From: Escherichia phage phiEC1
Sequence record: KY608965.1
Strand: one strand, 5' to 3'
Length of the DNA stretch: 64,000 nucleotides
Numbering within the stretch: the stretch's first letter is position 1; every line of letters begins with the position of its first letter. Positions 18,974-20,291 of this stretch are shown here, one piece after another. The notes below the pieces were generated by a model that was given only the letters and a program-made list of their open reading frames with translations, did not search any database and was not told the origin of the DNA. The position numbers and the translations under genes are program-made.

Positions 18974-19249
18974 TTATTTCATATTATTGAAATAATCTTC
19001 CGCATCAAAATCGTTATCATGGTAAACTTTGGTAGACGATTTGGCGTAGCCTTCAGCAGAGAACATATTAATCACAACTTTAATTGTATACCACTGTCCA
19101 TCTTCATTACCCATTACTGCATAGGTTTCATACACCGGGTGTTCAGGTCCAATAACTTTAATATCATTCACTGTACGTCCGAAATCTTCTGGAACGCATT
19201 TCATAAAGAAGTTGAACAGTTCACCGTAATTATCCATTTCATTCTCCAA
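18974..19249 (-). CDS. Hypothetical protein
   Basis: 91 aa ORF. Confidence 0.4.
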   Translation of the reverse strand: MENEMDNYGELFNFFMKCVPEDFGRTVNDIKVIGPEHPVYETYAVMGNEDGQWYTIKVVINMFSAEGYAKSSTKVYHDNDFDAEDYFNNMK

Positions 19250-19309: not shown

Positions 19310-19443
19310 AGTTTTGTGAAAAAATTTTTAAAAAGTTTTGTGGAATTCTAGGGCAGGGAGAGGAAATTAAAAAGTAGGATAATATATTATAAAGGGTATA
19401 AACTAAATGATGTGCCTAGAGAGGCCCTGAAAGGCCTAGATAC

Positions 19444-19472
19444 CAAAAAGCCCCAACCTTTCGGAAGGGGCT
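19444..19472 (-). terminator. Rho-independent terminator downstream of tRNA-like region
   Basis: Minus strand AGCCCCTTCCGAAAGGTTGGGGC hairpin followed by TTTTTGG. Confidence 0.55.
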
Positions 19473-19511
19473 ATACCTTGTCGGGGTTCCACCTGCAAGG
19501 CAAGTGTTTGT

Positions 19512-19603
19512 ACGAAACGCCGGGATTCGAACCCGGTTATTGAGTAGTTGACGCTACTCAATATTTTTAAAAGGCCATATCTCGACCATATCCGAACATT
19601 CCG
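19512..19603 (-). ncRNA. tRNA-like element (canonical T-arm, non-canonical body)
   Basis: Minus strand has CCGGG-TTCGAAT-CCCGG T-arm (19520-19536) and a possible 7-bp acceptor pairing CGGAATG/CGTTTCG, but no convincing anticodon stem; T4 encodes tRNA-like stable RNAs in its tRNA cluster. Confidence 0.3.
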
Positions 19604-19771
19604 TCAAAAACGCTACTCGGCTTACGGCAAAGATATTTCCTCGAATCGATAATTCGGTGCGCCGTTTCTGCTGTGATGTAAGGGGATATTAACGAATCAT
19701 AAAGATTTATTAAGACCAGTCCTTAATCAGGGAACATCAGTCCGACGACTTGCCGGTAGCGACCCGGCTTC

Positions 19772-20116
19772 TTATTTTGACATATCATCAATTTGTTCTC
19801 TACGTCTACGCCATAGATTAATTACTTCATCAACACATTCGGCGTTTGATATATGACGGCAATAATATAATGATTCGCGTTTCTGGAACCGATGTTGCAA
19901 TGGGATTTCGTTTAAAAGGTCTTTACGGTCAAAGTATTCAAAACTAGTTAACCCAGAACGGTTTTTAAGGAACTTCCAATGACCAAATTCATTTTGAACA
20001 TAGACGTAATCGGCATGCTGATACAGCGAATTAATTAACCTATTGGAAATAACTGTTTCACGTTCGTTAAAATAAAACGTTAAATCATGAACTACCAGAT
20101 AAACATTGCCTTTCAT
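19772..20116 (-). CDS. Hypothetical protein
   Basis: Start moved to ATG 20116 (MKGNVYLVVHDL...) with GAGGA Shine-Dalgarno, because the longer ORF would overlap tRNA-Arg. Confidence 0.4.
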   Translation of the reverse strand: MKGNVYLVVHDLTFYFNERETVISNRLINSLYQHADYVYVQNEFGHWKFLKNRSGLTSFEYFDRKDLLNEIPLQHRFQKRESLYYCRHISNAECVDEVINLWRRRREQIDDMSK

Positions 20117-20134: not shown

Positions 20135-20211
<77 letters not shown>

Positions 20212-20217
20212 AATATA

Positions 20218-20291
20218 TGACCCAGACCAGATTCGAACTGGTAACCTTTCCCTTATGAGGGGACTGCTGCTAACCATTGAGCTACAGGGCC
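20218..20291 (-). tRNA. tRNA with CAU anticodon (Met or Ile-type)
   Basis: Minus strand: anticodon loop CTCATAA, T-arm ACCAG-TTCGAAT-CTGGT, acceptor GGCCCTG/CTGGGTC with one mismatch; 6 nt from tRNA-Arg. Confidence 0.7.

Follow-up and report, generated by a model that had tools for sequence, protein, structure and literature searches.

The window analysed here, a 64,000-nucleotide stretch of Escherichia phage phiEC1 (KY608965.1), belongs to a T4-like phage. On its minus strand, downstream of two tRNA genes and one ORF, an earlier note made from the sequence had described one tRNA-like stable RNA, either of the kind that T4 encodes as RNA C and RNA D or a decayed tRNA. The two canonical tRNAs (Met and Arg) and the ORF lie upstream as described, and tRNA-like features are indeed present; however, the interval 19441-19780 holds what we read as two RNAs, rnaD and rnaC, and its tRNA-like part falls wholly within rnaC. 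Along the minus strand, the features of the locus are:

20218-20291, minus strand: tRNA-Met(CAU), upstream in the same transcription unit as rnaD and rnaC (ARAGORN and Rfam).
20135-20211, minus strand: tRNA-Arg(UCU), likewise upstream in the same transcription unit (ARAGORN and Rfam).
19772-20116, minus strand: small ORF of 114 aa (phrog_3355), between tRNA-Arg and rnaD.
19656-19775, minus strand: probable rnaD orthologue (T4 species 2 RNA), 120 nt, from alignment to T4 T4s002.
19650-19655, minus strand: spacer GAAUUA from rnaD to rnaC, 6 nt; the T4 spacer is AAAUUA, of equal length.
19511-19649, minus strand: probable rnaC orthologue (T4 species 1 RNA), 139 nt, from alignment to T4 T4s001.
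19490-19506, minus strand: 3′ trailer hairpin CACUUGC-CUU-GCAGGUG, which folds in the window.
19445-19472, minus strand: intrinsic terminator of the tRNA/stable-RNA unit, a stem plus U5 that folds as predicted.
18974-19237, minus strand: e.8-like gene (phrog_2678), after the terminator.

In phiEC1 the stop codon of the phrog_3355 ORF overlaps the 5′ end of rnaD. The ~330 nt between this ORF and the terminator contain ORFs of 22-43 aa and none longer than 43 aa, and none of these is conserved across copies; the earlier note, too, could not find an ORF here. The strong terminator of the earlier note is likewise confirmed: it reads AGCCCC..GGGGCT followed by T5 (19472..19445), has its homologue in the terminator that follows species I RNA in T4, and was missed by a simple terminator scanner because its stem is interrupted. 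The sequence of the trailer hairpin is also found in the alignment rows of T4, RB68, Kha5h and VIPECOMC06.

RNA C and RNA D have been known in phage T4 since the 1970s. There, transcription from a middle promoter yields a single RNA of ~1.75 kb, which covers the tRNA genes and then species II and I and terminates downstream of species I (PMC2330249, citing Broida and Abelson). RNAC has been confirmed in T4 infection by Northern blot (PMC9697503, 2022), and the same study places both RNAC and RNAD in the late class, with accumulation late in infection (PMC9697503). On the minus strand of the window, no dedicated late promoter (TATAAATA) occurs between 19780 and 23203, and a sigma-70 promoter scan returned background level only.

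A megablast search with positions 19400-19800 of the window matched 740 phage records, nearly all of them T4-like phages of enterobacteria, with a Mosigvirus as the top match (96.5%). In RB68 and Kha5h, ncRNAs named ‘rnaD’ and ‘rnaC’ are annotated beneath the match at the same position, and the T4 reference (NC_000866) carries the misc_RNA features T4s002 (rnaD, species 2 RNA) and T4s001 (rnaC, species 1 RNA) at the same place. The interval 19441-19780 aligns base for base with T4 rnaD and rnaC and is co-linear with them, which bears out the earlier suggestion of an RNA of the C/D kind. For rnaC, 136/139 positions are identical to T4s001 (97.8%) over the full, collinear length; two of the three substitutions preserve a base pair and the third is unpaired. 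For rnaD, 102/121 aligned positions are identical to T4s002 (84%), again over the full length. Gene order follows T4 as well (rnaD, 6-nt spacer, rnaC, terminator, e.8): rnaD lies directly upstream of rnaC in the tRNA unit, with a spacer of 6 nt as in T4, and rnaC lies downstream of rnaD and upstream of e.8 as the final gene ahead of the terminator.

Compared segment by segment with T4, rnaC (97.8%) is the best-conserved part of the neighbourhood, against 85% for e.8, 84% for rnaD, 79% for the 3′ trailer and 54% for tRNA-Arg, and this rank speaks against the ‘decayed tRNA’ that the earlier note had kept as its alternative. The rnaC signal is far beyond chance, given its identity to T4, the ~800 matching records and a fold z-score of -4.8. 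From alignment, position and comparative folding, we put the probability at roughly 0.85 that 19656-19775 and 19511-19649 are the orthologues of T4 RNA D and RNA C, the last two products of the tRNA unit, each with the comparative fold described below. As such they are already known elements, and their presence is expected in a T4-like genome.

The phiEC1 copies resemble and differ from their T4 counterparts in a few respects. rnaC occupies the same slot before the terminator of the tRNA operon and has the same predicted fold as T4 RNA C, and differs in its phage background, the best match of phiEC1 being a Mosigvirus. rnaD shares with T4 RNA D the invariant 5′ and 3′ core blocks and the position 6 nt upstream of rnaC. 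However, T4 RNA D begins 1 nt after tRNA-Arg with no phrog_3355 ORF, whereas in phiEC1 the ORF intervenes, as an ORF does in RB68; and T4 RNA D ends in ...ACCA, whereas phiEC1 rnaD ends in ...ACCG.

We modelled the fold of rnaC from 32 distinct copies out of more than 10 phage genera, with subsets of 21 copies for pair counts and 27 for minimum free energy (MFE) folds and ARAGORN calls. The copies come from Tequatrovirus, Mosigvirus, Gaprivervirus, Karamvirus, Winklervirus, Moonvirus, Kanagawavirus, Gelderlandvirus and Marfavirus, together with unclassified Citrobacter and Erwinia phages; a Proteus phage matched by BLAST was left out. The phiEC1 copy has an MFE of -50.6 kcal/mol (z = -4.8), and its single-sequence MFE fold coincides with the RNAalifold consensus of 21 copies; 26 of the 27 independent MFE folds have the same architecture. 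In that consensus 99.3% of cells are paired and 12 pairs show compensatory change (21 copies). Shuffled controls were as good in 0/500 cases on four of five measures and in 1/500 on the fifth, and slid controls reached only 39-45%. The model that emerges is a four-way junction of an acceptor-like stem (P1), a long rod, a 10-bp hairpin (P7) and a canonical T arm, with these predicted elements:

19642-19648, minus strand: P1 5′ strand CGAUUCG, pairing with 19513-19519.
19572-19641, minus strand: rod P2-P6, which holds the former ‘D/anticodon’ region and the internal CGGAAUG.
19602-19607, minus strand: rod-apex hexamer UUGACG, fully complementary to the loop CGUCAA of P7 at 19548-19553.
19538-19563, minus strand: P7, a 10-bp hairpin TATTGAGTAG-CGTCAA-CTACTCAATA with its loop CGUCAA at 19548-19553.
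19520-19536, minus strand: T arm CCGGG-UUCGAAU-CCCGG, whose middle pair covaries.
19513-19519, minus strand: P1 3′ strand CGUUUCG, followed by U-ACA-A.

The T arm that the earlier note had read on the minus strand (CCGGG-TTCGAAT-CCCGG) is present at 19536..19520; across the 32 copies its middle pair is U-A in 15, G-C in 14, A-U in 2 and U-G in 1, and four copies carry a non-canonical T loop. The hairpin described beside it is present too (19563..19538), although it has 10 bp and not 8-9, and compensatory change occurs in 9/10 of its pairs. P1 consists of 3 + 2 Watson-Crick pairs flanking two U.U and is paired in 32/32 copies (100%), its third pair being A-U in 12 copies and G-C in 20; in the rnaC pair counts C137 pairs with G4. 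The acceptor pairing of the earlier note holds in part. CGGAATG (19603..19597) and CGTTTCG (19519..19513) can form 7 bp, two of them G.U, but the 3′ strand has its true partner at the other end of rnaC, in the 5′ terminus, while the internal CGGAAUG (19597-19603) pairs inside the rod, with A49 opposite U42. The pairs A49-U42 and C137-G4 account for the bases that differ among copies in the internal acceptor. The terminal P1 is weak, and the internal strand would give a stronger 7-bp stem in the T4-like copies, so that the internal pairing may represent an alternative conformation. In Marfavirus, rnaC ends in ...CGUUCCG-U-CCA-A, a discriminator and an encoded CCA right after the terminal acceptor strand.

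The rod tolerates wholesale replacement. Its helices at columns 15-20/67-72 covary, and in 10/32 copies its interior has been swapped for unrelated sequence with no change in length, the interior measuring 64-66 nt in 32/32 copies of either rod type. Folded alone, the ten swapped-rod copies reproduce the four-way junction, with compensatory change in 15 pairs; outside the rod they keep both P1 ends (the 5′-terminal UCGGUUCGAGGA and the 3′ strand) as well as P7 and the T arm. Rod and P7 are separated by a linker of A and U, 8-9 nt long, that has single-base indels among copies. In T4-like copies this linker contains CUUUUAA, which we take to be the anticodon-loop heptamer of E. coli tRNA-Lys and target of PrrC; a decoy of that anticodon loop was considered and rejected, as the heptamer is unpaired and not conserved (other genera have UUUGAAA, UUACAAA or UUUAUAA, among others).

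The complementarity between the rod apex and the P7 loop extends across the whole sample. UUGACG and CGUCAA are invariant in 29/32 copies, and the three Marfavirus copies have UUGGCG/CGCCAA, in which an A-U has become G-C at a paired position; because this sole change is compensatory, loop-loop pairing is kept in 32/32. The covariation thus amounts to one evolutionary event in one clade. The rod hexamer starts at nt 42-43 in 32/32 copies. With a rod of ~27 bp and a hairpin of 10 bp leaving one junction, the contact demands a sharp bend of the rod, and a conserved bulge of 3-4 nt lies just below the rod apex. The pairing might instead be intermolecular, forming a dimer, or both hexamers might be read by a shared external target.

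rnaD is also structured. The phiEC1 copy has an MFE of -32.7 kcal/mol (z = -2.2), and the consensus fold of 19 distinct copies has 96.7% of cells paired and 8 compensatory pairs, with 0/500 shuffles as good. Its 5′ end (AUAAGAA) is predicted to be single-stranded and is followed by a covarying 5-bp hairpin with the loop GUCGCUA (19768..19752), a closing helix (19749..19743 with 19664..19657) that stops 1 nt short of the mature 3′ end of the T4 annotation, and inner helices that covary. Among the 19 copies the 5′ and 3′ blocks are invariant and the middle domain occurs in at least four unrelated versions. rnaD is not tRNA-like, because it has no T arm. The distribution of the two RNAs makes them separable modules: rnaD-like elements are found without rnaC in Dhakavirus and directly after tRNA-Met in Vequintavirinae phages, rnaC is flanked by tRNA genes in Karamvirus, Winklervirus and Gelderlandvirus, and at least one Karamvirus phage has a diverged rnaD-like element ~1 kb upstream of rnaC. 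A search of 185,579 bacterial genomes gave 0 matches to the rnaD pattern. The 44 bacterial matches to a loose rnaC pattern were rejected as unrelated, all of them lying within protein-coding regions of high GC content where no tRNA is called.

The literature of the 1970s and 1980s describes the 5′ end of T4 RNA C as a product of host RNase P, and the mature ends given here follow the T4 annotation. By analogy with T4 and with tRNA maturation, the stacked acceptor and T arm of RNA C would form a minimal substrate for host RNase P and for the enzymes that trim 3′ ends; a cut by RNase P at the 5′ end of RNA C would excise it from the tRNA transcript. The same cut would free RNA D, whose 3′ end would then be shortened across the 6-nt spacer as far as the closing helix, and the burial of their ends in helices would let both RNAs persist. 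It is possible, at odds clearly below even, that RNA C acts as a non-decoding tRNA mimic, its acceptor/T end being read by a tRNA-end factor and its locked body blocking use in translation.

Two further groups of known RNAs can be compared with rnaC. The tRNA-like domain of tmRNA resembles rnaC in having paired termini that form an acceptor stem, a T arm that immediately precedes the 3′ strand, and a large insert in place of the D and anticodon arms. rnaC differs in having no tag reading frame, in a third pair that is not the G3.U70 alanine identity pair, and in being far shorter at 139 nt; for tmRNA there was no ARAGORN call and no Rfam match. The mascRNA of MALAT1 and the tRNA-like module of bacterial YrlA/Y RNAs are non-decoding tRNA mimics that are recognised by the tRNA maturation machinery and persist as small stable RNAs. 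Their likeness to rnaC would be one of mechanism; the body architecture differs, there is no sequence or Rfam relationship, and a loop-loop lock is not known to be a feature of mascRNA or YrlA/Y RNAs.

An alternative is that both RNAs are functionless by-products, with structures that serve in cis as RNase P punctuation and as a stable 3′ cap while the excised RNAs stay idle. T4 phages with the tRNA region deleted are viable on laboratory hosts, which suits this explanation, as does the place of rnaC at the 3′ end of the unit beside the terminator in T4-like phages. Some 50 years have also passed without a function being found (PMC3014915, PMC9697503). However, rnaC is conserved beyond every neighbour, its loop hexamers, which processing does not need, are invariant or change only together, and its rod keeps a fixed length despite replaced sequence. 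Furthermore, Karamvirus and others carry rnaC in mid-cluster, between tRNAs that have RNase P sites of their own, and rnaD-like modules recur in the unrelated Vequintavirinae phages. The literature up to 2025 holds one functional hint for RNA C or RNA D: in an experimental evolution study of that year, an rnaD SNP (placed at ‘about position 41’ and in the ‘3′ region’) appeared independently in three lines while a T4-like phage was adapting to the host ECOR34, with virulence rising from 0.17 to 0.98 (PMC12685909), and such convergence is not what idle by-products would lead one to expect. Because of the conservation, the invariant loops, the fixed geometry and the spread across genera, we consider it unlikely that the two RNAs are mere by-products.

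Far less probable is a class II tRNA of ~94 nt (19511-19604), genuine or decayed only recently, in which the internal strand would be the acceptor and the hairpin a long variable arm, with 45 nt of 5′ leader. rnaC does resemble a class II tRNA: its canonical T arm is immediately preceded by a long hairpin, it has an acceptor-like stem of 7 positions, and it is located in a tRNA cluster; the 7-bp internal pairing exists, and a permissive Rfam scan gave a weak tRNA-Sec alignment of fitting shape (16.6 bits, E = 1.9), although the gathering score is 47 and the other permissive matches (ceN54, isrK and GA-cis) are noise as well, all far under their gathering scores. ARAGORN also calls a tRNA in 5/27 rnaC copies; the anticodons (Stop, Lys, Phe and Met) disagree, and these few, differing calls account for the stray labels tRNA-Lys(ttt) and tRNA-Met that the G4507 and PG7 records place on the element. 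In phiEC1, neither ARAGORN nor Rfam at the gathering threshold made a call over 19441-19780, and only the two upstream tRNAs were reported. The earlier note had looked to an Rfam match for a decision; none exceeds the threshold, but the documented RNA of T4 falls equally below it, and because T4’s own RNA has no family above threshold either, the absence refutes nothing.

A canonical tRNA would have an anticodon arm with a 5-bp stem and a 7-nt loop, and its absence, already remarked in the earlier note, is confirmed: the candidate stem is 82% paired without compensatory change, and its strands covary with other partners. rnaC has no D arm, no anticodon arm and no stable anticodon, and a 70-nt rod takes their place. 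The 94-nt cloverleaf with the internal acceptor, which the earlier note implied, also fails, since that stem shows no compensatory change, has A.C at its third pair in 8/21 copies and has its internal strand replaced in 10/32, whereas the 5′ terminus is invariant. A T arm with a GTTCGAATC-type loop does lie beside an acceptor stem; in that stem the partner strand comes from the 5′ terminus of the full 139-nt molecule, and the mature T4 RNA is likewise annotated as 139 nt from this 5′ terminus.

The hexamers admit another explanation, which we also regard as very improbable: TTGACG...CGTCAA could be an inverted repeat in the DNA that is bound by a protein, or the two could pair at long range in an RNA that folds differently. 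A symmetric change of both half-sites would be expected of a palindromic DNA site as well, and an intramolecular kiss is geometrically demanding. However, the half-sites lie ~48 bp apart, both hexamers sit at hairpin apices that are backed by covariation in two unrelated rod types, and pairing at long range would break up both P7 and the rod. That the region codes for protein through its short ORFs is scarcely credible: several GenBank records do place a ‘hypothetical protein’ over the homologous stretch, but no such frame is conserved across copies, substitutions track base-pairing and not codons, the linker has single-base indels, and documented T4 RNAs occupy this very place.

Returning to RNA C as a non-decoding tRNA mimic, a more specific proposal, and one that we hold to be quite doubtful, is that it is no degenerate tRNA but an RNA built for this purpose, with an encoded CCA in Marfavirus, and retained in more than 10 genera of T4-like phages. 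Its trans target would be a host factor that recognises the acceptor/T-arm end of tRNAs; it might, for instance, decoy or inhibit an enzyme of tRNA-directed defence or processing. Its body would be locked or dimerised by the 6-bp loop-loop contact of fixed geometry, while RNA D would be an independently mobile companion that affects host-specific growth.

Most of the ~800 records leave the rnaC element blank, and in others it bears a wrong label (‘hypothetical protein’, ‘tRNA-Lys’ or ‘tRNA-Met’), so that the coordinates and model given here are of value for annotation. The comparative model of rnaC, with its terminal acceptor stem, its replaceable rod of fixed length, its co-changing loop hexamers and an encoded CCA in one genus, is a useful lead on the old question of what RNA C and RNA D do, and it points to precise mutants.

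In most of approximately 800 public records, RNA C (rnaC, the orthologue of T4 species 1 RNA) is without annotation, and in the records of G4507, PG7, Marfa, EI and Ursula the element is wrongly labelled as tRNA-Lys(ttt), tRNA-Met or small hypothetical-protein CDSs, at the following positions (each locus has its own numbering):
L036:747-840, mislabelled rnaC of G4507
L037:1247-1341, mislabelled rnaC of PG7
L088:416-553, mislabelled rnaC of Marfa
L086:426-563, mislabelled rnaC of Klebsiella phage EI
L084:371-481, mislabelled rnaC of Ursula

In Marfavirus copies, the acceptor 3′ strand is followed by an encoded U-CCA in place of the U-ACA of T4-like copies, and the same Marfavirus copies carry the compensatory loop pair UUGGCG/CGCCAA.
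L086, L088 and L090, ~400-555 in each locus, Marfavirus rnaC copies

In four rnaC copies (L005 from Kc304, L029, L032 and L034), the T loop is non-canonical (UGCAUUC or UGCAUGC), without the usual A at loop position 5; their T stem and remaining fold are kept.

The tRNA-Arg(UCU) gene of the window (20135-20211, minus strand) is only ~54% identical to T4 tRNA-Arg, by contrast with 97.8% identity for rnaC, which lies 500 nt away. The tRNA genes of the window appear to differ in history from the stable RNAs. Between tRNA-Arg and RNA D (rnaD, the orthologue of T4 species 2 RNA) lies the phrog_3355 ORF, whose stop codon overlaps the first rnaD bases (19772-19775, minus strand); unlike the window, T4 is without this ORF, and its rnaD starts 1 nt 3′ of tRNA-Arg. 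In the closest relative, vB_VIPECOMC06, the slot between tRNA-Met and the phrog_3355 ORF is occupied by a homing-endonuclease gene (L003:509-1177), whereas the window has tRNA-Arg there.

There are 19 copies of the T4 late-promoter motif TATAAATA in the whole window where 8.5 would be expected, and most of them are on the plus strand from 46 to 64 kb. A terminator scan flagged two plus-strand "terminators" (19538-19563 and 19752-19768), both followed by T runs, which are simply hairpin P7 of rnaC and the 5′ hairpin of rnaD, respectively, in mirror image.

In Enterobacter phage myPSH1140 (L006:150-250), the 3′ end of a tRNA is followed by a diverged sequence of rnaD type (AAGUCGUCGG ... ACGGCGCC), ~1 kb upstream of the rnaC of that phage. 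It is therefore possible that both RNAs are present in Karamvirus at unlinked sites.

Between invariant 5′ and 3′ cores, rnaD has an inner domain that comes in at least four versions with no sequence relationship to one another (T4-type, JS10-type, L014-type and A7_1-type).
19680-19727, minus strand, rnaD middle domain of the window (columns 50-103 of alignment A5)

An rnaD-like RNA of the A7_1 type shares the conserved core but has a short middle hairpin that differs; it is immediately 3′ of tRNA-Met in a phage unrelated to T4, Escherichia phage A7_1 of the Vequintavirinae (L011:1195-1307), and such RNAs also follow tRNA-Met in UPEC06, A5-4, A73, W70 and LTH01. Their presence in phages unrelated to T4 suggests that the rnaD module has spread horizontally.
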